64,000 nt of DNA from an uncultured delta proteobacterium (GCA_963745835.1 CAVUZH010000025.1:1-64000); one strand, 5' to 3'; counted from the stretch's first letter, positions 5,902-33,069 are shown. Notes: generated from the sequence alone by a model not told the origin. Made by a program: numbers and translations.

Positions 5902-6005
5902 GAGGTGGCTCCTTCCTATATTTCTCAAAGGCGAATCGGTTTGTCTGACATAGAGCCCTTTGCTATACAACTGGCGCAAGCAACGAGACCAAGGAGTACG
6001 GTGTC

Positions 6006-6875
6006 ATGTCAGACATACCCCGCTTAAACGGCGTAATCAAAGCCCTCGAGCAAGGCCATACCGCCTTCGTTTCATTTTGCCCGGTCGATATCGAAAGTGC
6101 CGTCGCCATGGCGGGATCGCAGCTCGATGGCGTCGCTTTCGAAATGGAGCATGGCCCCCTCGATTTCCCCGGTTTACGCCAAGCTCTGCAGTTCATGCTC
6201 GACCGGCGTCAGATCATCCAACAAGCAACGTTAGCTCCCGCGGTCACGCCTATGGTGCGTATTCCGCCCAACGGCGGCGAGCACAATCAGTGGATCGCTA
6301 AACAGGTGCTCGATATCGGCGTTTTTGGAATCATTTTCCCGCACGTCAGCTCTGTCGAGGAGGCCTGGAACGCTGTGTGCGCATGCCGCTATCCGCGTCT
6401 CGCTACAGTTCCGCACTACGACCCAGCCGGAATTCGCGGTGATGCGCCGGCGCGAGCGGCGCGCTATTGGGGTTTAACCCAACAGGAGTATTACCAACGG
6501 GCCGACGTGTGGCCATTGGCACCGCACGGAGAAATTCTCGTCATCATTCAATGCGAAGATACGCGCGCCATCGATAATCTTCCGAAGATTCTCAAGGAGG
6601 TGCCCGGCATCGGCGTTGTTTTGATAGGTGAAGGCGATTTAAGCCAGGAGTTGGGCCATCCTAGAAATTATGAGCATCCGGTTGTGGCGGACGCGATCGC
6701 TAACATTCTCAAAATTTGCAGGGAGCACAACGTACCGTGCGGCCATCCTCACCCAGACTCGCATAATATTGAGCGGCTGGTCGCCTGCGGCTATCGCTTC
6801 CTGATGCCGTCTGCGCCGCGATCCTTCAATGTTCTCGAACTTGGCCGCAAGCTCGCCGGCAGAACTGCCGGTTGA
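6006..6875 (+). CDS. HpcH/HpaI aldolase family protein
   Basis: EMEHGP, PMVRIP, KQVLDIG, IGEGDLS motifs. Confidence 0.9.
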   Translation: MSDIPRLNGVIKALEQGHTAFVSFCPVDIESAVAMAGSQLDGVAFEMEHGPLDFPGLRQALQFMLDRRQIIQQATLAPAVTPMVRIPPNGGEHNQWIAKQVLDIGVFGIIFPHVSSVEEAWNAVCACRYPRLATVPHYDPAGIRGDAPARAARYWGLTQQEYYQRADVWPLAPHGEILVIIQCEDTRAIDNLPKILKEVPGIGVVLIGEGDLSQELGHPRNYEHPVVADAIANILKICREHNVPCGHPHPDSHNIERLVACGYRFLMPSAPRSFNVLELGRKLAGRTAG

Positions 6876-6959
6876 ATCTCGTCGACAAAAATAAAACTGT
6901 GCAGTTCAATATCTGACTGATTGACCGCAAGAGCTTGCTATAAGAGACGTTGCTTGAGG

Positions 6960-7196
6960 ATGCTATCGATAAGGGACGTGAAGGACGAGGCACTTTGCGC
7001 GGCCGCCAGTCTTGATAAACTCGCTCAGGAATCTCGAAGGCGGAAATCCCAGCGCCTGCAACTGGCTGCTGATTTGAGGGCAGCCGTGATTCATGATTAC
7101 ATTTTTCTCCACCACAATATTGCTCTTGAGCCAGTAAGTATCTGCTCGGGCGACTGTGATTCATTCCCTGGATTGATCTCGTGCTCGATGCCGTAA
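6960..7196 (+). CDS. Hypothetical protein
   Basis: ORF from ATG 6960; no motif. Confidence 0.25.
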   Translation: MLSIRDVKDEALCAAASLDKLAQESRRRKSQRLQLAADLRAAVIHDYIFLHHNIALEPVSICSGDCDSFPGLISCSMP

Positions 7197-7381
7197 AAAG
7201 CAGGCGGGCACATCAACATCCCCATATGAATATTTTATTGCCCAATCGTTCGGGGAGAGAACGAAACGCGGCCACATCTAGGGGAATCGCACCTATGATC
7301 AGGTCTACGTTGACAGTGGATTTTTATGTGATAAGAGGCACGACATCTTGCTAAAGCCAGGCTGCTTGCTGGGGTGACAAC

Positions 7382-7654
7382 ATGAGACTACTACGTCGGC
7401 TGATTCGTGGCGTCCTAGCATTAACGATTTGTCTGATTTCCGTTCCGCAAAAACTTGATTCTCACGGCGGAGACCCTGACCTGATTCACGCCTGCATTAA
7501 CGATAAGGGGGTCGTTCGGATTGTTCGTCCCAAGGATGAATGTGCCAGATCGGAAACGGCGCGACACTGGATACGAGTTCGACCGGGGGACAAGCCGCCG
7601 CGCGACCGCAAGGTGTCCGACGGCAAGTTAGCGTCGGTAGAGTTGTTGGACTAG
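7382..7654 (+). CDS. Small secreted hypothetical protein (IHAC...VRIV...C...E...W module)
   Basis: Signal-peptide-like N-terminus followed by a two-Cys module. Confidence 0.5.
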   Translation: MRLLRRLIRGVLALTICLISVPQKLDSHGGDPDLIHACINDKGVVRIVRPKDECARSETARHWIRVRPGDKPPRDRKVSDGKLASVELLD

Positions 7655-7966
7655 CCGTAGGTCTCGCAGACACCCAGCGCGGGCTCGCGGATAGTAAGCT
7701 ATTATTCGCGGAACCATCACGGAGCTTGCCACTTCCTAGTGACTGAGCTCGATGATACCTCGCGCCCCCGCTTTCGGAATGGCGCTATCTTCGCACAGTA
7801 GTTTTTCGAAGCGGCGCTTATGGCCCCTGCGGCCTTAAACTGATGCTGACACGGCTAAGATTATCGAGCGCGCAGAATAAGACTGCCGTTCCGCCCTTCG
7901 TTTGTTTACACAGACCCGGGTTTCGAATAATACATCAGGCATCTAGGCTCGACATTAGGAGGCGCC

Positions 7967-8995
7967 ATGATTTACACGCGCATTTGCGATCTGCTCGACA
8001 TCGTTCATCCGGTCGTTTTGGGCGGGATGGGAACTGCGACCACTGCGCCGCTCGTCGCTGCCGTATCCAATGCCGGCGGTTTCGGCACTCTGGGCACATC
8101 TGCGTTCAATGCCTCAACTCTTGATACGGAAATCGCGTCGATCCGTGAGCGAACCGACAAGCCATTCGGCATCAATCATCTGCTCTTTCAAATCCAGGAG
8201 GATATGTTCACGGTTACTCTAAGCGCTAAACCGACGGTCGCCGCGTTTGCCTGGGCTCGCAAGGATCAGAACCTGCGTGAATATTTTCAGCGCGCTCACG
8301 ATGTTGGATCTAGGGTCATGTACATGGCCGGTGAAGTTCCTGAAGCTCTCCGTGCTGCGGATGCCGGGGCGGATATGATCGTGGCTCAGGGCACAGAAGC
8401 CGGAGGGCATGTGGGTTGGATGGCGTCCCTACCGCTGCTACCGATGATGGTCAAAGCCGTAGCGCCGTTACCAGTTCTCTGCGCGGGTGGTATCGCCGAT
8501 GGCCGAGGTCTTGCTGCCGTGCTGGCGCTTGGCGCCGAAGGTGTACTGCTCGGCACCCGTTTCATGGCCACGCCGGAAGCGCCGATTCATCCGAACTTCA
8601 AACGAGCGATTGTTGAAAGCGACGGCCACGACACCGTGCTGACGGAAATTCCTGATCTCGCCAGTCAGCGCGTCTGGCCCGGAGCGATGTCGCGAGCTCA
8701 GCGCAACCGTTTCATCGAGCGCTGGGCCGGACGCGAATGGGCGCTGCGGCAAAATGCCCGGGACGTTGGCCGGCAGGTTGCGGCTGCCCGCGCTGCCGGC
8801 GATATCGATAACGCCTCACTTTCCTTCGGTCAAGATGCCGGCTTAATCGATTCCATCAAGAGCGTACGGGAAGTAATTCGAGACATCATCGGCGAGGCGG
8901 AGAATATCATCAAAGATCGATTGCCCGGCCTTCTCCAGAGCGGAGAAGCGAACAAGTTAGCTAGCGGCAAAAAGACTGCGTCAAAAGGTTCGTAG
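7967..8995 (+). CDS. Nitronate monooxygenase / FabK-like FMN oxidoreductase
   Basis: LVAAVSNAGGFG, QGTEAGGH, AGGIADGRG, GTRF motifs; AGGAGG RBS. Confidence 0.92.
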   Translation: MIYTRICDLLDIVHPVVLGGMGTATTAPLVAAVSNAGGFGTLGTSAFNASTLDTEIASIRERTDKPFGINHLLFQIQEDMFTVTLSAKPTVAAFAWARKDQNLREYFQRAHDVGSRVMYMAGEVPEALRAADAGADMIVAQGTEAGGHVGWMASLPLLPMMVKAVAPLPVLCAGGIADGRGLAAVLALGAEGVLLGTRFMATPEAPIHPNFKRAIVESDGHDTVLTEIPDLASQRVWPGAMSRAQRNRFIERWAGREWALRQNARDVGRQVAAARAAGDIDNASLSFGQDAGLIDSIKSVREVIRDIIGEAENIIKDRLPGLLQSGEANKLASGKKTASKGS

Positions 8996-9143
8996 TAACC
9001 GCACCGATTTGCCTGGACGTTTGATGGGTACAGGAGAGGCAGTGAAGAACAGTTCTTCGGCGGACAGAATTTCGAAATCTGCGCTCTACCCGACCACTGG
9101 CTTAAATACTCGCTGCTTCAGCTGAACATGGCAACGAGCAACG

Positions 9144-9377
9144 TTATCTAAAGGCCGCCTGGGTTTTACTTATTTTCAACCAATCAGGTGACTCTTCCAA
9201 ATGCGCCGACTGGCATCGTTTATCACGATGTTTTTGAATACAGCTCAAGCAGAAGCCGATCACTGGCGAATCAGCGATCTCCTCATAGTAGCGTAGCGGC
9301 CAGTTCTCGCACTCCCTGCAAAAATGCCAGATGTCGGTCAGGTTAGACTTTCGATAAAAGGTTCTCAAATCGGCCAT
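9144..9377 (-). CDS. Small Cys/His-rich putative metal-binding protein, copy A (WHFCxxCxNWP...CxxC...C)
   Basis: AGGAG RBS; paralog at 12289 conserves the Cys/His/Trp pattern despite DNA divergence. Confidence 0.7.
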   Translation of the reverse strand: MADLRTFYRKSNLTDIWHFCRECENWPLRYYEEIADSPVIGFCLSCIQKHRDKRCQSAHLEESPDWLKISKTQAAFR

Positions 9378-9402
9378 GCGAGCTCCTGATCAGCAGAACT
9401 GA

Positions 9403-9588
9403 TTACGAACCACAGGAGAATGGAGCGGCGATACAATCAACGACTTTGCTCCAACTTCCTGCCAGTTCATCGCCTATGTTAGTGCTTCTCATGCCGCCCC
9501 AGAAAACCAGGGCAACCAGAAATACGATCAAGGTATATTCCATCAATCCCTGACCCCGCTCATTACGCAAGTTCTTTAGTGGTTCCAT
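9403..9588 (-). CDS. flp: Flp family pilin, copy A (61 aa)
   Basis: MEPLKNLRNERG|QGLMEYTLIVFLVAL: short leader, G cleavage site, E5-Y6 Flp motif, hydrophobic helix; GGGAG RBS. Confidence 0.85.
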   Translation of the reverse strand: MEPLKNLRNERGQGLMEYTLIVFLVALVFWGGMRSTNIGDELAGSWSKVVDCIAAPFSCGS

Positions 9589-9642
9589 GACTTTCTCCCT
9601 TCGTTGCTTTTTGCGACGTTGTGGTATCACAACGCGGCATAG

Positions 9643-9658
9643 CGCAACTCTAATGCCA
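9643..9658 (-). promoter_or_regulatory. Sigma54 (-24/-12) promoter of flp copy A
   Basis: TGGCATTAGAGTTGCG on the minus strand, GG-N10-GC spacing. Confidence 0.8.
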
Positions 9659-10068
9659 CAAAGTAAGCTCTTGAGATGTTTGAAGACTTGGAGGTAAGGC
9701 AATTGTATTTTTGCCGACGTTGACAAAAATCAATTGAAGACTTGTCAGATTCGGCACCACCTTATAACTTTTGGTGCCCTTGAGAAAAGTTAGGTAACTG
9801 ATTCCAGCGTGGAATCGATAGCGGGCGCGCGGAGCGTATTAGCTCCCTCGCGAGTTGCGGCGCTTACGCTAACTCCATGCAGGTGCAGTCAATTAGATTC
9901 GCCTCGCTTGATGTCTATCTGTTTTCGATTTGACCACCGAATAATTTTGTTTCTTACGATTTTGATGCAATGACCTAAAGACAGCTACGGTTTGCTTCTT
10001 GCAGTTGCCACAGCGAAGTATTTTTGTCGTGCTATGGCAAATATTTTGATTCTAAGGTAATACTTTAA

Positions 10069-11550
10069 ATGATAAGTACATCTTGTGCGCGCCTAATCAG
10101 CGGCCCTCCGGCCAATGCGATGACACCCAAAATTCTTGTGGTTGACGATGATGTTGTAGTCCGTGAGCTCATGGTGCGGCTATATCTCGATAACGGTTAT
10201 AGCGTTGTCGGAGTGAGTTCGGGTGAAGAAGCCTTAGCGTTGCTGGTCCAGAGAAACATAGATTTCGTCATTACCGAGATCAATTTACCGAGAATGAGCG
10301 GTACCGAACTGATAGCTTACATTCAGGAGAATTCTCCTGATGTTCCGGTGATCGCAGTCACGGCGCATTCGAATATCGAGATTGCGATAAACGTTCTTAA
10401 ACTTGGCGCAGCGGATTTTGTGGTCAAGCCGTTCGATCTGGGCACGGTACAGGAATCGACGCGTGTAGCACTGGAGAAGACCCGGGTCTACATGGAGATT
10501 CGCCATCTGCGTCGGGGTCTTAAGAACGGCTCTGAGTTTGGCGGCATGCTCAGCAAAACGGCCGAGATGCATCGGATGTTCGAAATCATCCGCATGGTAG
10601 CGCCCACCGAGATGACGGTCTCCATCGAAGGAGAAACCGGCACCGGTAAGGAGTTAGTGGCCAGCGCGGTTCACTATCATAGCGGGCGGCGCGAAAAACC
10701 GTTTGTCACGATTAACTGCGCCGGTTTTCCCGAATCCCTGCTCGAGAGCGAGCTTTTTGGATACGAACGAGGCGCCTTTACCGGCGCAGTACAAGCCAAG
10801 GCAGGAAAGATTGAGCTAGCCCACGGCGGCACCTTGTTTCTCGATGAGATCGAGAGCATCTCAGTGGTCATGCAGGGCAAATTGCTCCGGGTCTTGGAAG
10901 ATCAGAAGGTTCAGCGGCTCGGTGGCAGCGCCGATATTCACGTTGACATGCGGGTGATCACGGCCACCAATGTGCCGCTCAAGCAGCTTGTCGCCGAAGG
11001 CAAAATGCGCTCGGATTTTTATTATCGGGTCAATGTCATCCCGATCCACCTGATCCCGTTACAGCAGAGAAAGGTGGATATTCCTCTATTGGTTCAGGAT
11101 TTTCTCCATCGTCATCCGGTGGCCGCGGGCAAGGGGATCACCTCGATTTCCAAGCAAGCGATGCGTCGGCTGTTGGACTACTCCTGGCCGGGCAACATTC
11201 GCGAACTGCAAAATGTTCTCGAGCGCGCCATCGTTCTCAACACCGGCAGAACCATCGAACATGTCGATCTACCGGAAGTCAGCTTTGAGGCGCATCCAAG
11301 CAGGGGCGGCAACGCCTTTAACGCCCCGCTTAACCAATGGCTGCAGGAAAAAGAAAAGGAGTATCTGGCGCAAAAACTCGATGATTTCGGCGGCAACGTC
11401 GGACTCACCGCAAAGAGCTGCCGGATCGGCGTGCGCACCCTTTCTCGTAAGATGCGCGAATATGGAATCGATAAAGCTTCCTTTAAGCAAAGAGTGACTG
11501 CGCTTTCTGCTGGGCATTCTTTGGCCGGATCGATGGTTACACCGCGCTGA
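10069..11550 (+). CDS. Sigma54-dependent enhancer-binding response regulator (NtrC/PilR/AtoC family); alternative start ATG 10120
   Basis: Receiver domain, GETGTGKE, ESELFG...GAFTGA, TLFLDEI, WPGNIRELQN and a C-terminal Fis-type HTH. Confidence 0.95.
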   Translation: MISTSCARLISGPPANAMTPKILVVDDDVVVRELMVRLYLDNGYSVVGVSSGEEALALLVQRNIDFVITEINLPRMSGTELIAYIQENSPDVPVIAVTAHSNIEIAINVLKLGAADFVVKPFDLGTVQESTRVALEKTRVYMEIRHLRRGLKNGSEFGGMLSKTAEMHRMFEIIRMVAPTEMTVSIEGETGTGKELVASAVHYHSGRREKPFVTINCAGFPESLLESELFGYERGAFTGAVQAKAGKIELAHGGTLFLDEIESISVVMQGKLLRVLEDQKVQRLGGSADIHVDMRVITATNVPLKQLVAEGKMRSDFYYRVNVIPIHLIPLQQRKVDIPLLVQDFLHRHPVAAGKGITSISKQAMRRLLDYSWPGNIRELQNVLERAIVLNTGRTIEHVDLPEVSFEAHPSRGGNAFNAPLNQWLQEKEKEYLAQKLDDFGGNVGLTAKSCRIGVRTLSRKMREYGIDKASFKQRVTALSAGHSLAGSMVTPR

Positions 11551-11909
11551 CTGGCAGTTCACGAGCGTGGCGGCCAAACGCTAGTCTCTGATGAACTGGA
11601 GTTTGATGACCAATGGAAGGATCTCTCCTCGAACTAGTAAGTGTCCTGGTGGTGGCGGCTATCAGCTACTTTGTGAGTACCGTGACGCTTTGATATCCAA
11701 CCTTTCTTAGATCTCCGCAGCTCCTCAAGGTCGCTGCTTACAAAGGGATTTTTCTAGGACTGTAATTTCTTCAAGGTGTAAAGCCTCGATCCCCCAGCAT
11801 AACGGCAGCATTCCTGACTGAGCCGGTCAATCTTTCAGACGACCTGCGTTCCAAGCGCATCGTAAAGTTACTTAACAATTCTTCGAAGCACACTAAAGTC
11901 ACGCCCAGG

Positions 11910-11954
11910 TGCCGAATCTGACAAGTCTTCAATTGATTTTTGTCAACGTCGGCA
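11910..11954 (+). promoter_or_regulatory. Candidate pair of upstream activator (enhancer) sites; mirrored at 9712-9756
   Basis: TGCCGAATCTGACA (11910-11923) and TGTCAACGTCGGCA (11941-11954), both TGYC-N6-GRCA, about 55-100 bp upstream of the -24 element. Confidence 0.6.
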
Positions 11955-12007
11955 AAAATACAATTGCCTTACCTCCAAGTCTTCAAACATCTCAAGAGCT
12001 TACTTTG

Positions 12008-12023
12008 TGGCATTAGAGTTGCG
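12008..12023 (+). promoter_or_regulatory. Sigma54 (-24/-12) promoter of flp copy B
   Basis: TGGCATTAGAGTTGCG. Confidence 0.8.
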
Positions 12024-12077
12024 CTATGCCGCGTTGTGATACCACAACGTCGCAAAAAGCAACGAAGGGAGAAAGTC

Positions 12078-12263
12078 ATGGAACCACTAAAGAACTTGCG
12101 TAATGAGCGGGGTCAGGGATTGATGGAATATACCTTGATCGTATTTCTGGTTGCCCTGGTTTTCTGGGGCGGCATGAGAAGCACTAACATAGGCGATGAA
12201 CTGGCAGGAAGTTGGAGCAAAGTCGTTGATTGTATCGCCGCTCCATTCTCCTGTGGTTCGTAA
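12078..12263 (+). CDS. flp: Flp family pilin, copy B (identical to copy A)
   Basis: Same protein as 9403-9588. Confidence 0.85.
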   Translation: MEPLKNLRNERGQGLMEYTLIVFLVALVFWGGMRSTNIGDELAGSWSKVVDCIAAPFSCGS

Positions 12264-12288
12264 TCAGTTCTGCTGATCAGGAGCTCGC

Positions 12289-12537
12289 ATGGCCGATTTG
12301 AGAACCTTTTATCGAAAGCTGCCGCACGAGAATGTATGGCACTTCTGCAGGAAATGCGAGAACTGGCCTCAGTTTGGATACGGTGAACACGACGATACGG
12401 ATTCCCATTCGGTGATCTTCTGCATTCGCTGTATCGAGCATCATCGTACAAGCCAATGCGAATGGCTTCACTTGGAATTGTCCCCGGGAGTCCGCTGTCT
12501 CTGCGAAGCGCCAGCGGGGCGACCTCGTTTGTTCTGA
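12289..12537 (+). CDS. Small Cys/His-rich putative metal-binding protein, copy B
   Basis: MADLRTFYRK...WHFCRKCENWP...CIRC...C; paralog of 9144-9377. Confidence 0.7.
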   Translation: MADLRTFYRKLPHENVWHFCRKCENWPQFGYGEHDDTDSHSVIFCIRCIEHHRTSQCEWLHLELSPGVRCLCEAPAGRPRLF

Positions 12538-12555
12538 AGCTATGAAGGGACTCCA

Positions 12556-12918
12556 ATGAAGAAGATTTTGATCGCCGATGACTATCCAGACATGCGTGAA
12601 TTGCTGGGCAGACAGATAGAATCTCTGGGCTTCGTTCCAATTCTGGCTGAAAACGGTAAGGACGTTTTAGAGAAAGCTATCCGAGAGAAACCGCAGTTGA
12701 TACTACTCGATATGATTATGCCGGTAATGGATGGTTGGGAAGCCGTCCGAAGTCTGCGGGCTAATCCTGAAACCAAGGACATCCCGATTTTGGCAGCAAC
12801 GGCGTTATTTCACCAATCGGATCTCAACACCTGCATAGAACAAGGTTGCGACGGCTACATCAATAAGCCGTTTACTATCGTGGAACTTAAAAAAAAGATC
12901 GAGGAACTTATTCGCTAA
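12556..12918 (+). CDS. Single-domain response regulator (CheY/DivK-like)
   Basis: ILIADD, LILLDMIMPVMDG, ATA, GYINKPF motifs. Confidence 0.92.
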   Translation: MKKILIADDYPDMRELLGRQIESLGFVPILAENGKDVLEKAIREKPQLILLDMIMPVMDGWEAVRSLRANPETKDIPILAATALFHQSDLNTCIEQGCDGYINKPFTIVELKKKIEELIR

Positions 12919-12990
12919 ACGAAGGGCAACCGCGGGCGGTGTCCGGTGTTGCAGTATAGCAGTATATAAATGATCGGCTTGTTACCAAGA

Positions 12991-13992
12991 TCATTTATAA
13001 AGCTTATCGACGAAACCTGACTTACCGAGTTCCATGAGTATGGAGTTGTCGATGAGACTTTCGGGCTTGGCTGCTTTGGCGCTCTGATGCGACGCGAAGT
13101 TAAGCATTGTTTGTACGGCCGCAGCCGGGACCATGGGAAGCCGTTCCCAAGCGGGTACAAACGCTTGATAAGAACTTTCCAAGTCTGCCGCATCGGTTGT
13201 CTTGGTATACTTGCCGATCATCTGTTTAGTGAATTCCGCGTCGGTGAGAGCGATTTTAATGCCCTCGAGATATGCCTGCAAAAACCGCCGCGTCAAATCA
13301 GGGTGTGTCTTGAGATAATCTCTAGTTGTTGCTAGAGCCGCATGGATCATTGGAATATTCTTCTCCGTCACATTCACCAATTCTTTCAGTCCTGCGGTGC
13401 GCGCTTTCAAGGTTGTTGGCGCTGTAAAGATTCCCGCCACGGCGTTTCCCTGGTTTATTCCCGCCAAAATTTCCGGCATTCCCCTGAGATAAAGAAGCTT
13501 AACATCTTTTCCCGGCGCTAAACCCGATTGTTGGAGCAGCACACGGGCCGCGAAATCAGTAGTCGCGCCGGGCACGGTAACGCCCAGGACTTTGCCTTTT
13601 AGATCGGACATCGAGTTGATCTCCGGCTTTGCGTAGATCGACATGACGGCTCGATTGAGAATTCCCGCGATAAATACCACTGGCTCGCCGTTTAATCCTG
13701 CTTCGACGATCTCACCGCCCGGATTGATAATATCAAGGTTTTTGGCAAGCAGTGCCTGAGTCGCGGTGGCGGGCGCGATGTATCGTAGATCGACATTTAA
13801 ACCGTATTTTGTGAATAAGCCTCGCTCCGTTGCAATCCACAACGGCGCGAAGGCGCCGCTAATCGCCGCATAATTAGCTCGTACCAGGGGCATCTCAGCC
13901 GCACGAGCTGCGATGGAACCGGTGAGAATGTAGAACAGTGACAGCAGAACTGCCGATCCGCAGGCTCGTACCGAGACTTTAATTACCCTCAT
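12991..13992 (-). CDS. ABC-type substrate-binding protein, NMT1/SsuA family
   Basis: Signal peptide, PLWIA..RGLFTKYGL, DLKGKVLGV. Confidence 0.85.
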   Translation of the reverse strand: MRVIKVSVRACGSAVLLSLFYILTGSIAARAAEMPLVRANYAAISGAFAPLWIATERGLFTKYGLNVDLRYIAPATATQALLAKNLDIINPGGEIVEAGLNGEPVVFIAGILNRAVMSIYAKPEINSMSDLKGKVLGVTVPGATTDFAARVLLQQSGLAPGKDVKLLYLRGMPEILAGINQGNAVAGIFTAPTTLKARTAGLKELVNVTEKNIPMIHAALATTRDYLKTHPDLTRRFLQAYLEGIKIALTDAEFTKQMIGKYTKTTDAADLESSYQAFVPAWERLPMVPAAAVQTMLNFASHQSAKAAKPESLIDNSILMELGKSGFVDKLYK

Positions 13993-14125
13993 TTGACCTC
14001 CACGCTTCTAACGATCATTTTATCTAAGCTCGATCAGAAATCCGTTCTCGTCAGTATTGCCATGAAACGTCGAGTCGCGACTTCTCTACCTGCAATCCAG
14101 GTCGCGACTTCCGCGCATAACCGCA

Positions 14126-15124
14126 TTATTGCTTATATAGTTGTTTGATAAAGCCGGTGGCTTCGATTTCTTGCACCAAACTCATGTCGACGAACGCCTT
14201 AGGATCGGCGGTCGCCGCCTTCGGGTTTCGTGGCGCGAGGTCGTCCAGCATGGTTTTGACGCCATCCGCAGTGGGTAGCAAATTTTCCGGAAAAACGGAG
14301 ACATAAGCTTGGTACGCCCTTTCGAGACCTTCTGGATCGGTGAGCTTGAGATTTTTGCTGTAGATCGCCTTGGTTCCTTCTTTGTCGGTTTTGATGTAGT
14401 GAATGGCTTCCATCATTGCCCGGGAAAATTTCGTCAACACCGCTCGATTTGACTTCACGGCCGACTCTTTGGCGAGAACAGCATTCCACCAGAACGGTAT
14501 TTTTAGTGACTGGATATCGAACAGATCTTTGAAACCTAACTTCTCAGCTTCGCGGACAAAAGGCTCCGGCATGATACTGAACTGAATGATCCCGCGAGAA
14601 ATCGCCGCCAGTCTCGCCGGATTGTCTCCGGCGGTAATAATCTTGACGTCTTTTTCCGGATCAATTCCCTTACGGCGCAGCGCCAGCCGGAGCCCCAAAT
14701 CCGAAGTGCTGCCGAGGCGGTTTACCCCGCCTGTCTTACCCTTTATCTGCTCGAGAGCCGTAACGCTCGGATGGGAGATGATGTGATCTAGGAACGTCGG
14801 TACCATTCCTAGGATCATCACGATATCGGCACCCGCCAGGCGAGAGAGGGCGAGCGTAGTGACGGAAGTTACGATCACATCTACTTCGCCGGCAAGCAAA
14901 GCCTGTAGCGCAATCGGACTTGCGGAAATACTGATGACCTCGCCGTTAAGTCCGTGTTTCTTGAGCAACCCTCTTTCTTGAACCACCCAAATCGGGCTAT
15001 TTGCCGGACTCACTCCAGCCCAGGCGATCCGAATTCTTTCCTGCGCGAGGGACTGATCTCCTTGGCCTGAGAGAACGGCTAGAGCAGTGAGTAAGACTAA
15101 AACAATCCGACTAAAAGATCCCAT
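14126..15124 (-). CDS. ABC-type substrate-binding protein, NMT1/SsuA family
   Basis: Signal peptide, PIWVVQERGLLKKHGL, QALLAGEVD, GSTSD. Confidence 0.85.
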   Translation of the reverse strand: MGSFSRIVLVLLTALAVLSGQGDQSLAQERIRIAWAGVSPANSPIWVVQERGLLKKHGLNGEVISISASPIALQALLAGEVDVIVTSVTTLALSRLAGADIVMILGMVPTFLDHIISHPSVTALEQIKGKTGGVNRLGSTSDLGLRLALRRKGIDPEKDVKIITAGDNPARLAAISRGIIQFSIMPEPFVREAEKLGFKDLFDIQSLKIPFWWNAVLAKESAVKSNRAVLTKFSRAMMEAIHYIKTDKEGTKAIYSKNLKLTDPEGLERAYQAYVSVFPENLLPTADGVKTMLDDLAPRNPKAATADPKAFVDMSLVQEIEATGFIKQLYKQ

Positions 15125-15180
15125 GATTTAAGCTCCTAAATGTAGTGATGTTCGATGCAACACGACCTGCGTGACATCGA

Positions 15181-15990
15181 TCAGACTCTCGGCTCCCATT
15201 TCAACAGTGATAAAAAATTGGCCGAGAAAACTTTTTTCAAGTCCTCCTGATTGAGTTTGGCGGCCCGGGTTACGTGTCTCGATATTTTTTCAACTTCCAT
15301 GGACAATGGATTGTAGGGATGATCGGAGCCAAAGAGGATCTTGCTTGTGCCAACGCCGCGAAAGGCCTCGAGCAGCAGGGGCATCCAACCCACGACTGAC
15401 GTTTCCAGGAAAATATTTTCGTTCTGCCGAGCCACCGCCACCGCCAACTTTACATATTCCGAAACACCCATGTGGCCGAGAATAACCGGGACATCTTTAT
15501 AGTTAGCGGCGAGCTCTGCGATAACCCCTGGTGATGCCTTGCTCGACATTCCGGTATGGAAAATAATCGGCACATGATAGCGCCGAGCCGCAGCGTAAAT
15601 CGGCTCCATTAACTCCGCTTCGTTCGGATCGAAGAACTCGATCTCCGGATGGAGTTTGATTCCCTTCAGTTTGAGATTACCCAGGCAATGCTCCAGCGCA
15701 TCCGCCGAAGCCTGCGGACCAAAATTAGGATTGATCCTGCAGAAACTAATTATACGTTTGGGATGCTTGGCCATTTCCTCCGCCATGATCTGGTTTGCCT
15801 CTGAATAGTCCGTGTATGAAGCTCCCAGAGGAAAGGCCACGGCACAATCGAGGCCTGCTTCGTCGAGATTGCGGACTAAATCATCGCCAAGAAAACTCGC
15901 CACTCCGTGGCCCAACGGGGTTTTGCGCCGCCCCAAGTGAGAATGGGCGTCGATCGCGTAATATTCGGAATCGTTAATGCGTAAAGCCAT
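15181..15990 (-). CDS. Amidohydrolase_2 family protein
   Basis: IDAHSH, KGIKLHP, FHTG, LGHMG, LFGSDHP. Confidence 0.9.
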   Translation of the reverse strand: MALRINDSEYYAIDAHSHLGRRKTPLGHGVASFLGDDLVRNLDEAGLDCAVAFPLGASYTDYSEANQIMAEEMAKHPKRIISFCRINPNFGPQASADALEHCLGNLKLKGIKLHPEIEFFDPNEAELMEPIYAAARRYHVPIIFHTGMSSKASPGVIAELAANYKDVPVILGHMGVSEYVKLAVAVARQNENIFLETSVVGWMPLLLEAFRGVGTSKILFGSDHPYNPLSMEVEKISRHVTRAAKLNQEDLKKVFSANFLSLLKWEPRV

Positions 15991-16239
15991 TTAAGATCTC
16001 CTTCATCCGACCAACGCCGCCGTGATCAACGCTTCATACTAGTGTCGCGTCATCTGAAATTCGTACGGACGACTTAAATTATCGGATTTGAACTCAACAG
16101 ATCATGGACGATTGCGGGCAAATTGGCAGCAATCCATTGCGCCAGCTCTAATATGGTTCAAAAGCCCTGTCAACCCAACGGGTGTTTGACCTCCTGGTTT
16201 CTTGTACGAATGTCTTCGATGGCGACACTTAAGAAAAAC

Positions 16240-18637: not shown

Positions 18638-21600
18638 GCTTCTCAGAGTTATTCATTCGCCGGCCGGTCATGACCATGGTCTTGACCGTGTCGGTGGTTC
18701 TCTTTGGAATTCTCAGTTACCTGCGCCTTCCGGTCAACGATTTGCCGGCAGTGGATTATCCCGTCATCCAGGTTCAAGCGAACTATCCGGGCGCTAGCCC
18801 CGATACCGTGGCGAATAGCATCGCTACGCCTCTCGAGCGCCAGTTCATGCAGATCAACGGGCTCGAGCTGGTGATTTCGAAGAGCACCCAGGGACATACC
18901 AGCTTGACTTTGCAATTTGCGTTGGAAAAAAGCGTCGATGTAGCGGCCACCGACGTCCAAACGGCAATTTCACAGGCTACCGGCAGTTTACCGGTGGATC
19001 TACCTTCGCCGCCGACATACTCCAAGACCAATCCTAACGATCAACCGATCATGTATATTGCGTTGACCAGCGATTCCGTCACGGTGGGTCAGCTCTACGA
19101 CTATGCCAGCACTCAAGTAGGCCAGCGCATTAGCATCCTGCCGGGGGTCAGCCGGGTCAATGTTTTTGGCGCCAAGTCGGCAGTGCGCATCAAGGCCGAC
19201 CCGTCCGCCATGTGGGCCCGCGGCATCTCCGTTGAAGATCTCGCAGAAGCGATTCGCAACGGCACCAGCACCATCGGCGCGGGGCAATTCGACGGCTCTG
19301 GCGGAACGTTACTGCTTCGCCCGCAAGGTCAATTGGATGATGCCAAAGAGTATGGCGATCTAATCGTCAGCAGCAAGAACGGCTCGCCGGTTTATTTGCG
19401 CGATGTCGCCCAGGTAAAAAATTCGGTCCAGGATGAGCGCATCAACATGCGCTTCTGGGTGCGCGGCTATGATCCGCCCGCAGCCACGGTAATTGTCGCG
19501 GTTAACCGCAAGGCGGGAGCCAATGCGGTGGAAGTCGCTCAAAGCGTTCGCCAGCTGTTGCCGCTGATCAGCACCGAGCTGCCGGGATCCGTGAGGGTGA
19601 CTCCGATCTATGATCGGTCCCAGACGATCATTCACTCCATTCTCGACGTGCAGTTGACCTTGGCTATCGCATTCGCGCTGGTGGTGATTGTCATATTTGT
19701 CTTTCTCGGCCGCGCCACCGACACTTTGATACCCGCGGTGGCTTTGCCGTTGTCGTTGCTGATCACGTTCGTGGTCATGGACCTGCTGGAATTCAGTCTG
19801 GATAATCTATCGCTCATGGCCCTCACCTTGGCGATTGGCTTTCTGGTCGACGATGCCATCGTTTTTCTCGAAAATACGGTACGCCGGATGGAACACGGCC
19901 AAAAAGCTCTCGAAGCAACCATCGCCAGCGCTCGAGAGATCAGCTTCACAATCATCTCGATGACCATTTCGCTTGCCGCGGTTTTCATCCCGCTGGTCTT
20001 CATGCCTGGACTAGTCGGACGGATCTTTCGCGAATTCGCCGTCACAATTGTCGTCGCCATCATCGCCTCGGGCTTGGTGTCGCTGACTTTGACCCCGCTG
20101 ATGTGCGCTCGGATGTTAAGCGACCGCGGCCAAAGTTCCAAGCAAACGTGGATGGAAGCGAAGATGAGCGCTTGGGAAAAAAGTTTTCTCGATCGCTATA
20201 GCCGGGCTCTCTGGTGGTTTCTGCGTTTTCGCTGGGTCTCAGCGCTGATTTGGGTCATGTGCCTGGCAGGTACGGTTTGGCTTTTTATCCTCGTTCCCAA
20301 AGCTTTTCTGCCGCCTGGAGACAGCAGCTTTATATTCGGGTTGATGATCGGCCGCGAAGGCTCGTCGCCAGGGCAAATGCACCAGCTTCAGAACCAGGCC
20401 GATGAAATTCTCCGCGCCGACCCCGGTGTCCGAGCCACTTTTACCATGACGGGTAACGGTCAGTTTCTCGCCTCGAACCAGGGCCTGCTCCTGGCGTTTC
20501 TTGAAGAACCCGGCAATCGCGCGCCGATCGAATCTGTAGCCGGCGGGTTAATGGGCAAACTGGCGATGGTGCCGGGAGTGATGCCGTTTATGCGGCCGCG
20601 CCCGGTGCTCGAGATCAGTACCGGCGCAACTAACCAAAATCAGGGGCAGTACGCATTCTCGCTCTCCGGGGTGAACCCCAAGCAAGTTTACGATGTCGCC
20701 GGCAAACTGATGGAACGTTTGCGGCCTTATCCGGGCTTCGCCAGTTTATCTTCCGATTATTTCAACAACACGCCGAATCTGGACATTGAGATCAAACGCG
20801 AACAGGCGCGGTTGCACGGAGTCTCAGAGGCGCGCATTCTTCAGTTGCTGCGCAGTGCCTACGCACAAAACTATCTTTATCTAATCAAAAAGCCGGAAGA
20901 TCAGTATCAGGTCATTCTGGAAGCCGAGGATGCGGCTCGCTCTGAAGCGCAAGATTTATCCTTGCTGCACATTAAATCCGACGACGGCAAAAAGCTTGTG
21001 CCACTGAACACGTTGGTCACCTGGAAAGAATCGCTCGGCCCGCAGGCGGTGAATCACCTCAATCAGTTCACGAGTGTCACCCTGTTCTTCAATCTCAAAC
21101 CCGGAGTCGCAGTCGGCGAAGCTACAGATTTCATCACCAAGGCGGCGGCAGAAATTGTGCCACCTACTGTCCGCGCCAGCCTACAAGGTGAAGCGCAAAC
21201 TTTTCAGGATACCGTGCGACATCTAACCCTGTTAATGGCCCTGGCGGTCTTTGTCATGTATGTAATCCTGGCAATTCTTTATGAAAGCTACTTGCATCCT
21301 CTAACCGTTTTATCCACTTTGCCTACCGCATTGGTGGGAGGTCTGTTAACCCTGTGGCTTTTTGGCGAACAAGCATCGCTCTATGCGTTTGTCGGCATGT
21401 TTATGTTGATGGGCATCGTTAAAAAGAACGGCATCTTGATCGTTGATTTCGCTATCCATCGAGTTATGGCCGGCGAACGGGCCGACCAAGCGATTCACGA
21501 TGCCAGCCTGGACCGTTTCCGTCCTATTCTGATGACGACCCTCGCCGCGGTATTCGGCGCGTTGCCGATTGCCTTGGGCATCGGCGCCGACGGCGCCTCG

Positions 21601-33053: not shown

Positions 33054-33069
33054 AGCAATTGATATGCCA
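33054..33069 (-). promoter_or_regulatory. Sigma54 promoter
   Basis: TGGCATATCAATTGCT on the minus strand, near consensus. Confidence 0.75.

Follow-up and report, generated by a model that had tools for sequence, protein, structure and literature searches.

An inverted repeat with two identical Flp-type pilin genes around an NtrC-type activator gene in an uncultured Binatia bacterium

A 64,000-nucleotide stretch of DNA assigned to an uncultured delta proteobacterium (GCA_963745835.1, CAVUZH010000025.1:1-64000; hereafter the window) carries two identical genes for a Flp-type pilin (flp), which sit back to back in the arms of a 411-nt inverted repeat and enclose a gene for an NtrC-type bacterial enhancer-binding protein (bEBP). 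The host is a soil bacterium of the uncultured Binatia group, and the sequencing runs that contain the stretch are soil and rhizosphere metagenomes. The element is probably a sigma54-driven accessory pilin module of the Flp/Tad type that is homogenised, and occasionally flipped, by homologous recombination.

The inverted repeat and its interior

The two arms are perfect reverse complements, as the initial annotation had it, and flank 2149 nt that encode a single NtrC-type activator (Table 1); a second repeat pair, 32 nt at 88%, lies directly outside them. Read outward, each arm comprises a 35-nt site, a -24/-12 element, a Shine-Dalgarno sequence, the flp gene (61 aa), a 25-nt spacer, and the first 30 nt (10 codons) of a zinc-ribbon gene. 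Motif and open reading frame (ORF) analysis thus recovers the arm content and the outward direction of both units that had been described. By blastn against the 7.28-Mb genome (G000; 25 contigs, the window being C25:1-64000), the arm occurs in two copies only.

Both arms are real. Logan contigs from two DNA runs of separate studies (X1, which may be the source sample, and X2) were mapped to 9759-13000, and the unitigs of the unique interior and of the flank outside arm B stop 30 nt inside the arm (X1 records 4 and 8; X2 records 30 and 25). In X1, the arm unitigs have depths of 34.4, 33.5, and 37.5 against 18.1 and 18.6 for the flanks; in X2, the depth is 21.7 against 11.5 and 13.5. This doubling in two studies shows that the arm is not an assembly duplication, the concern raised when the structure was first described. 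No single record of X1, X2, or the RNA libraries X15 and X16 spans an arm, the unitigs ending at the arm boundaries, and at k=31 both orientations of the interior share all 31-mers, so that the depth data carry no orientation information.

Table 1. Features of the cassette and their positions in the window
Feature	Position	Strand	Basis
Zinc-ribbon protein A (77 aa), 25 nt downstream of flp A	9144-9377	-	ORF, family alignment
Left arm A of the inverted repeat	9348-9758	.	411 nt, 100% complementary to 11908-12318
flp copy A, 61-aa Flp-type prepilin + stop codon	9403-9588 (ORF 9406-9588)	-	ORF; G12/QGLMEY18 motif
Sigma54-type -24/-12 element of flp A (TGGCAT-N5-TTGC)	9644-9658	-	pattern match TGGCATTAGAGTTGC
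Candidate enhancer (upstream activating sequence) of flp A: TGACAA-N15-TTGTCAA + CGTCGGC	9713-9747	-	motif scan
Degenerate inner-flank motif just past arm A (AGTTACCTAAC...AAAGT)	9761-9799	-	~70% similar to 11866-11907
NtrC-type bEBP (REC, AAA+ sigma54-interaction, HTH_8; GAFTGA)	10069-11550	+	ORF, domain search
bEBP tract near-identical to the paralog at G000:C25:177.6 kb	10429-11448	+	3 mismatches in 1020 nt
Degenerate inner-flank motif just past arm B	11866-11907	+	similarity to left inner flank
Right arm B of the inverted repeat	11908-12318	.	411 nt; arm unitigs ~2x flank depth in X1, X2
Candidate enhancer of flp B	11919-11953	+	motif scan
Sigma54-type -24/-12 element of flp B	12008-12022	+	pattern match TGGCATTAGAGTTGC
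flp copy B, identical to copy A	12078-12263 (ORF 12078-12260)	+	ORF
Zinc-ribbon protein B (82 aa), 25 nt downstream of flp B	12289-12537	+	ORF, AF2 model
Single-domain CheY-like receiver, 18 nt after zinc-ribbon B	12556-12918	+	Response_reg E=3.8e-24

To judge from its sequence, the cassette is an old inverted duplication with a homogenised core. The search of related genomes proposed in the initial annotation finds it in G000, G004, G005, and G006, half of the eight genomes of the genus, each time between the same outer genes and with codon 10 of the zinc-ribbon gene as the outer limit of the repeat. G004 and G005 are short-read assemblies, whose contigs break off within the arms at mirror positions. 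Beyond the 411-nt core, the units align weakly, outward through the zinc-ribbon genes (54% identity in protein) and inward, at ~70% identity, over ~40 nt (AGTTACYTAAC...AAAGT). Arms A and B differ at 0/411 positions within G000, 6/409 within G006, 9/312 within G005, and 2/188 within G004, and at 0/409 between two metagenome contigs of one lineage (L134 for arm A, L136 for arm B). Between genomes, the arms of G000 differ from those of G006 at 16-18/410 positions, from those of G005 at 40-41/312, and from those of the L134/L136 lineage at 51/409-410. The greater likeness within than between genomes amounts to concerted evolution, a signature of repeated gene conversion.

The proposal that recombination between the arms could flip the activator gene is borne out by the congeneric genome G006. 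Its locus (L042) matches the window in its outer genes and their order (NMO, zinc-ribbon A, flp … flp, zinc-ribbon B, CheY, NMT1) and aligns colinearly on both outer sides (window 6000-9758 at 95.1%, 11866-16000 at 94.5%), while window 9298-12368 aligns in reverse at 92.4%. The bEBP ORF of G006 lies on the minus strand between the same zinc-ribbon A-flp and flp-zinc-ribbon B-CheY units, and the inner flanks have changed places, the left one of the window standing beside arm B and the right one beside arm A, which places the inversion breakpoints within the arms. The orientation is thus not fixed among relatives.

Of 37 metagenome loci, 16 were examined, and four of these span an arm with cargo and interior both identified: L133, L134, and L136 have the G000 orientation and L132 that of G006. 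A further contig, L135, reaches into the interior from a cargo side that could not be assigned. At a 1-kb tract that the bEBP gene shares with a paralog, L132 and L134 run from the window-type 5′ part of the gene into the 3′ flank of the paralog; they are probably chimeric at this 1-kb repeat, or else real recombinants, and because of this jump, arm-spanning paths in short-read contigs were not counted as proof of orientation. In one 1216-nt metagenome contig (L138), a zinc-ribbon A-like fragment, on the minus strand, is followed after ~180 nt by a complete arm with flp, zinc-ribbon B, and CheY, with no bEBP gene in between, a layout that is either a deletion variant or a mis-assembly. In a maximum-likelihood tree of the outer-B flank (10 sequences; L137 and L138 omitted as short or odd), G000, G006, and the group (L131,(G004,L132)) form a polytomy, so that one inversion event is enough to explain the orientations.

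Promoters, pilin, cargo, and activator

Canonical sigma54 promoters read TGGCAC-N5-TTGCW. Both arms carry TGGCAT-TAGAG-TTGCG, with GG at -24, GC at -12, and the canonical spacing. The pattern TGGCAYNNNNNYTGC matches four times in the window against 0.64 expected, a number reached in none of 100 shuffles; the two matches outside the arms lie at 21148-21162 (-) and 33055-33069 (-). The element is also conserved: in 18 of 35 rows of relatives, the 260 nt upstream of flp contain [CT]GG[CT]A[CT]-N5-[CT][TC]GC, which makes 18 of the 30 usable rows once four without upstream DNA and one TadE false match are set aside (16/26 without the unpublished genomes G018 and G012), against a chance expectation of ~0.008 per row by the authors' own arithmetic. 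A third flp gene of the genome, at the tad locus on contig C13, is likewise preceded by a sigma54-type TGGCAT-GAACT-CTGCT, and contig C19 bears rpoN (Sigma54_DBD E=5e-62). These conserved elements, together with rpoN and the GAFTGA motif of the bEBP, favour the original description of a pilin expression unit with sigma54-type promoters around an activator gene.

Upstream of each promoter lies a 35-nt candidate enhancer, TGACAAGTCTTCAATTGATTTTTGTCAACGTCGGC, with two matches in the window against 0.00 expected. Its TGACAA...TTGTCAA/TTGACAA and CGTCGGC block, aligned at the -24 element, is conserved in the orphan flp promoters of relatives, and clusters of TGACA/TGTCA occur upstream of tad-locus flp genes. 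On this evidence, the orphan promoter is suggested to derive from the tad-locus promoter and to use a related activator, which would bind at the candidate enhancer. The inner-flank motif GTTACTTAAC is conserved as well upstream of the single-copy orphan flp in G002-like sequences.

Scans of 8900-13100 for intrinsic terminators and sigma70 promoters gave no more sites than shuffled sequence. Contigs from the RNA libraries X15 and X16 cover flp, the zinc-ribbon B gene, CheY, the bEBP gene, and intergenic DNA, one of them (X15 record 14) spanning 12044-12319 with 0 differences and possible DNA carry-over. Such contigs give coverage from which transcript starts, strands, and levels cannot be read, and co-transcription of flp with the zinc-ribbon genes is presumed.

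Literature searches on sigma-54 or RpoN together with Flp or tad pili turned up no report of sigma54-dependent flp promoters. In the portion of PMC9207406 consulted, the flp/tad row of a table reads '-' in the rpoN-mutant column for P. fluorescens, and the main text of Francke et al. 2011 does not mention Flp, Tad, or pilin. Likewise, pili, tad, Flp, and sigma are absent from the main text of the Binatota genome paper.

The window pilin would be a divergent member of its family. Against Pfam Flp_Fap (PF04964), it scores 15 bits (E=0.022), where the curated cut-off is 32.2 bits, and the single sequence has no relevant match in the PDB. Among 24 relatives, Flp_Fap matches at E<=0.1 in 16 (best 8e-05), and the profile of these relatives has as its best PDB matches the Tad pilins 8u1k_A (PilA, E=0.0054) and 8u2b_A (a Flp family type IVb pilin, E=0.0075). 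Prepilins of this kind are processed at G/XXXXEY, followed by a hydrophobic helix. The window protein presents G12-QGLM-E17-Y18 and then such a helix (TLIVFLVALVFW), with G12, E17, and Y18 invariant across the 24 relatives. It is accordingly filed here as a putative divergent Flp-type pilin that falls short of the family hidden Markov model.

Assembly machinery is encoded elsewhere, as a search for tad genes across the genome established. The third flp gene (62% identical, C13:89292-89447) heads a complete tad locus (G000:C13:76000-93000, L008) with genes for Peptidase_A24, RcpC/CpaB, a secretin, a receiver-ParA TadZ-like protein, T2SSE (CpaF/TadA), two T2SSF proteins (TadB, TadC), two TadE proteins, a Tad/TadG-like protein, and a DsbA-like thioredoxin. 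Genome-wide profile searches with PF01478, PF00482, PF00437, and PF07811 gave no match on contig C25, in line with the reported lack of tad and prepilin peptidase genes in the window. Both window flp copies are therefore orphans on a contig other than that of the tad locus, and the notion of a self-contained module does not hold, since the peptidase, CpaF/TadA, TadB, TadC, secretin, CpaB, TadZ, and pseudopilin genes are all on C13.

Some further observations concern flp genes and their surroundings. The C13 tad locus ends with the DsbA-like thioredoxin gene, and two cysteines are conserved in the C-terminal part of the Flp pilins of this family. Divergent from the tad-locus flp are a REC-GGDEF (PleD-like) gene and a histidine kinase gene, and a divergent receiver-domain gene adjoins flp in 12 loci of relatives. 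Additional single orphan flp genes (70-84% identical), with no adjacent bEBP or zinc-ribbon gene, occur at G006:C13:235498-235665, on G007:C99 (L047), where the neighbour is an MFS-type transporter ORF, and on G002:C135 (L048); the promoter of the G002 type retains GTTACTTAAC and TGACAA motifs.

The cargo differs between the two sides, as originally reported: the Cys/His-rich zinc-ribbon proteins A and B are 54% identical, and a CheY-like receiver follows on the right. Proteins of this type, with the motif YRK-x6-WHFCxxCxxWP-x15-18-CxxC, occur in five copies in G000, one of which is joined to a receiver domain and follows a hybrid kinase (G000:C16:306847-307002; L012 1486-2052). A profile search returned 655 clusters at E<=0.001, mostly of 50-100 aa. 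Three of the 10 matches scanned (eight longer and two short) contain a Response_reg fusion, with both domain orders represented (P0039, P0046, P0073), and such fusions speak for a functional link of zinc-ribbon B with its CheY-like neighbour. The domain has no Pfam or NCBIfam family; all 34 near-length homologs are unnamed or 'hypothetical protein', a word-based search for longer forms found none, and the ESM Atlas gives unnamed clusters only. A first AlphaFold 2 (AF2) model had a predicted local distance difference test score (pLDDT) of 46 and a second, of zinc-ribbon B, a mean of 73.7, with the first 60 residues mostly >70; Foldseek found no significant PDB neighbour for the model (the sole row being Ada protein, E=7.7).

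The interior gene encodes the one NtrC-family activator that had been recognised there, with the domain order Response_reg 22-129, Sigma54_activat 162-327 (E=1.3e-66), AAA_lid_14 333-412, and HTH_8 428-465. Its phospho-acceptor position holds Glu (Glu70; codon GAG, 10276-10278) in place of Asp, and no kinase gene adjoins it. Glu is found at this position in G000, G006, L132, and L136, and Asp (GAT) in L134, L135, and 14 of 14 paralog-type genes. The position is polymorphic between the 99.6%-identical contigs L136 (Glu) and L134 (Asp). Glu at the phospho-acceptor site of NtrC partly mimics phosphorylation. By analogy, its presence here suggests kinase-independent activity, and if the mimicry extends to this protein, the activator of the module would need no kinase.

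A paralog with 90% amino-acid identity lies 166 kb away on the same strand (C25:177618-178997, in the region G000:C25:177.6-179.0 kb; L129 6517-8043); a PAS-HisKA gene immediately precedes it, and RsbR/RsbS/RsbT-like and SpoIIE-type genes follow. Residues 116-463 of the two proteins are identical, and the receiver part is ~50-83% identical per 60-nt block. X1 unitigs break at the edges of the near-identical tract (records 1 and 4), with record 3 inside it at ~2x depth. The window gene is thus a mosaic, whose tract at 10429-11448 looks like a second gene-conversion tract. In the fetched flanks of 12 bEBP relatives (59-90% identity; 12 of 80 loci examined), no flp or zinc-ribbon gene was found; these 12, the closest relatives examined, are orthologs of the paralog at C25:177.6 kb and not of the window gene. 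A third paralog, 72% identical, is located at G000:C3:1158663-1161536 and adjoins stop-interrupted Phage_integrase matches. Elsewhere in the assembly, contig C12 looks like a second copy of the end of C19 (tblastn bEBP matches of the same identity and length, identical sigma54-like sites), in agreement with a contamination or redundancy estimate of 9.3% for G000.

Proposed mechanism and alternative explanations

In the proposed mechanism, an old inverted duplication would have set two flp and zinc-ribbon units back to back around the NtrC-type bEBP gene. Sigma54-RNA polymerase would sit on the -24/-12 element of each arm, and the activator, bound to TGACAA-N15-TTGTCAA ~60-90 nt upstream of the -24 element, would open both promoters to give two outward transcripts, one of flp and zinc-ribbon A and the other of flp, zinc-ribbon B, and CheY. 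The prepilin would be cut at G12/Q13 by a TadV-type peptidase and assembled by the tad machinery of C13. Recombination of the RecA type would maintain arm identity by repeatedly converting one copy to the other, and an occasional crossover between the arms would invert the 2.15-kb interior, as between G000 and G006. The AAA+ and helix-turn-helix parts of the activator would be homogenised with the kinase-linked paralog, while its differing receiver, with Glu at the phospho-acceptor position, may allow kinase-independent activity.

Since either arm retains a promoter and a candidate enhancer of its own, the inversion would be a by-product of the repeat and not a programmed switch, and a flip changes only what lies beyond the arm. 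The initial annotation had suggested that a flip could redirect read-through or the inner regulatory sites from one cargo operon to the other; the change in what borders the arm stands, and a change in cargo expression would be a further, conjectural step.

Several points weigh against this reading. The genome encodes many bEBPs, and the assignment of the window activator to the flp promoters is presumptive. The Flp protein lies under the curated Flp_Fap cut-off (15 against 32.2 bits) and has no match in NCBIfam. Transcription is represented by RNA-library contigs at depths of 2-17 (X15, X16), for which DNA carry-over is not excluded. The inversion is documented by one assembly pair, G000 and G006, whose read type is presumed, and repeat-spanning short-read contigs at this locus are untrustworthy witnesses of orientation. 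Recurrent flipping goes beyond the outer-B tree, for which one event suffices. The perfect arm identity in G000 could partly reflect consensus polishing, against which the single double-depth arm unitigs of X1 argue.

A regulatory flip-flop switch, in which frequent and reversible inversion of the interior changes expression, is unlikely. By this account, the bEBP gene, co-directional with flp B, zinc-ribbon B, and CheY in G000 and with flp A and zinc-ribbon A in G006, would favour one cargo operon per orientation through read-through or through sites unique to the inner flanks. Both orientations do occur in nature (G000 and G006), and the inverted-repeat architecture is retained across lineages 13-16% apart in the arm. 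Read-through would also be permitted: from the bEBP stop (11550) to flp B, the scan shows no intrinsic terminator that convinces, the sole site there (11646-11665) having a weak stem and no T-run and the count of three sites not exceeding the shuffle mean of 4.4. In two RNA libraries, moreover, contigs extend over 11481-11885, on the downstream side of the bEBP gene. Yet with a promoter and a candidate enhancer in each arm, both operons would be activator-driven in either orientation, and a single event accounts for the known orientations. A recombinase is missing too, in keeping with what was first noted for the window: Resolvase (PF00239) and Phage_integrase (PF00589) have no match on contig C25 in a genome-wide profile search that left DEDD/Piv-type recombinases aside.

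Improbable as a whole is a more elaborate, recombinase-free device of an uncultured phylum. Here, the gene of a sigma54 activator made constitutively active by the Asp-to-Glu change would often be inverted through RecA, and each inversion would exchange the signalling cargo, zinc-ribbon A or zinc-ribbon B with CheY, that is coupled in transcription to the activator gene. The zinc-ribbon would act as a novel partner of receiver domains, or as their output module, and adjust how the Tad pilus behaves.

That the difference in orientation is an assembly artefact, the repeat being real and its 411 bp wrongly resolved in G000 or G006 with no inversion, is likewise improbable. Short-read contigs do take wrong or unverifiable paths through the repeat at this locus (L132, L134), and contigs break inside the arms in two of the four genus genomes (of eight) that have the cassette (G004, G005). 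Both assemblies that differ are, however, highly contiguous (25 contigs for G000, the largest of 1.45 Mb, and 30 for G006), which suggests reads longer than the repeat; the six differences in 409 positions between the G006 arms aid placement by an assembler, and the whole interior is cleanly swapped together with both inner flanks.

Very improbable is the view that the arms are identical only through a very recent duplication with no continuing gene conversion, since the 100% identity over 411 nt in G000 is accompanied by the same two-arm architecture and outer boundary in lineages 4-16% apart, by arms closer to each other in each lineage than to their orthologs, and by flanking zinc-ribbon paralogs of just 54% identity.

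Significance and comparison with known systems

The accessory pilin module proposed here leaves central concepts unchanged, and each of its points is testable. Its relevance lies in (i) concerted evolution on a bacterial chromosome, in which two regulatory and coding units stay identical in several lineages at the level of species, the edge of conversion is conserved, and inversion of the enclosed activator gene is documented, (ii) Flp/Tad pilin genes of a Binatia family with sigma54-type promoters, a link not found in the literature searched, (iii) a mosaic activator with output domains common to a kinase-linked paralog and Glu as phospho-acceptor, and (iv) a widespread zinc-ribbon domain (655 clusters) with no Pfam family that is repeatedly fused to receiver domains.

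Regulation of the type IVa pilin gene pilA by PilS/PilR and sigma54 in Pseudomonas, Geobacter, and Myxococcus is the nearest regulatory parallel. As there, a pilin gene stands behind a -24/-12 promoter with an NtrC-type response-regulator bEBP encoded beside it, which presumably regulates it. Unlike that system, the pilin is of the Flp/Tad (type IVc) kind and is duplicated as a mirror image around the activator, which has Glu at the phospho-acceptor position and no adjacent kinase.

In the sap locus of Campylobacter fetus, RecA-dependent inversion takes place between oppositely oriented surface-protein genes that share conserved 5′ regions, and a single promoter on the invertible segment selects the gene expressed. 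The cassette resembles sap in having long homologous inverted segments at the 5′ ends of outward surface-structure genes, with an interior found in both orientations, and in an inversion that would proceed by homologous recombination with no dedicated invertase. It differs in that each arm has its own -24/-12 element and candidate enhancer where sap has a single promoter, and, the two pilin genes being identical, inversion offers no antigenic choice.

Site-specific, recombinase-dependent inversion by Piv swaps pilin coding ends in Moraxella bovis and Moraxella lacunata. A segment of ~2 kb at a pilin locus is invertible in both cases, but the Binatia cassette has 411-bp arms, identical coding sequences on both sides, and no PF00239 or PF00589 recombinase on the contig. 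The Moraxella inversion is entered, as Marrs et al. 1988, in a table of PMC11868660, the part of that article drawn on here. The Hin/Gin, Fim, and Piv switches combine short repeats with a dedicated recombinase; the 411-bp arms, on a contig devoid of matches to the two families searched, set the cassette apart from all of them.

For the activator, a likeness is offered by RedR1/RedR2 of Aromatoleum anaerobium, paralogous bEBPs that are identical except at the N-terminus according to the section of PMC10084136 consulted. As far as that section goes, both pairs share an identical AAA+ and DNA-binding body and differ in the N-terminal regulatory part; unlike the RedR pair as described there, the shared body appears here to be kept by gene conversion across 166 kb, with one copy inside a pilin inverted repeat.

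The plastid inverted repeat undergoes flip-flop recombination and copy correction. The Binatia cassette is similar in that recombination would keep its copies identical and that the intervening segment exists in both orientations, but it does so with 411 bp as opposed to tens of kilobases, and on a bacterial chromosome.

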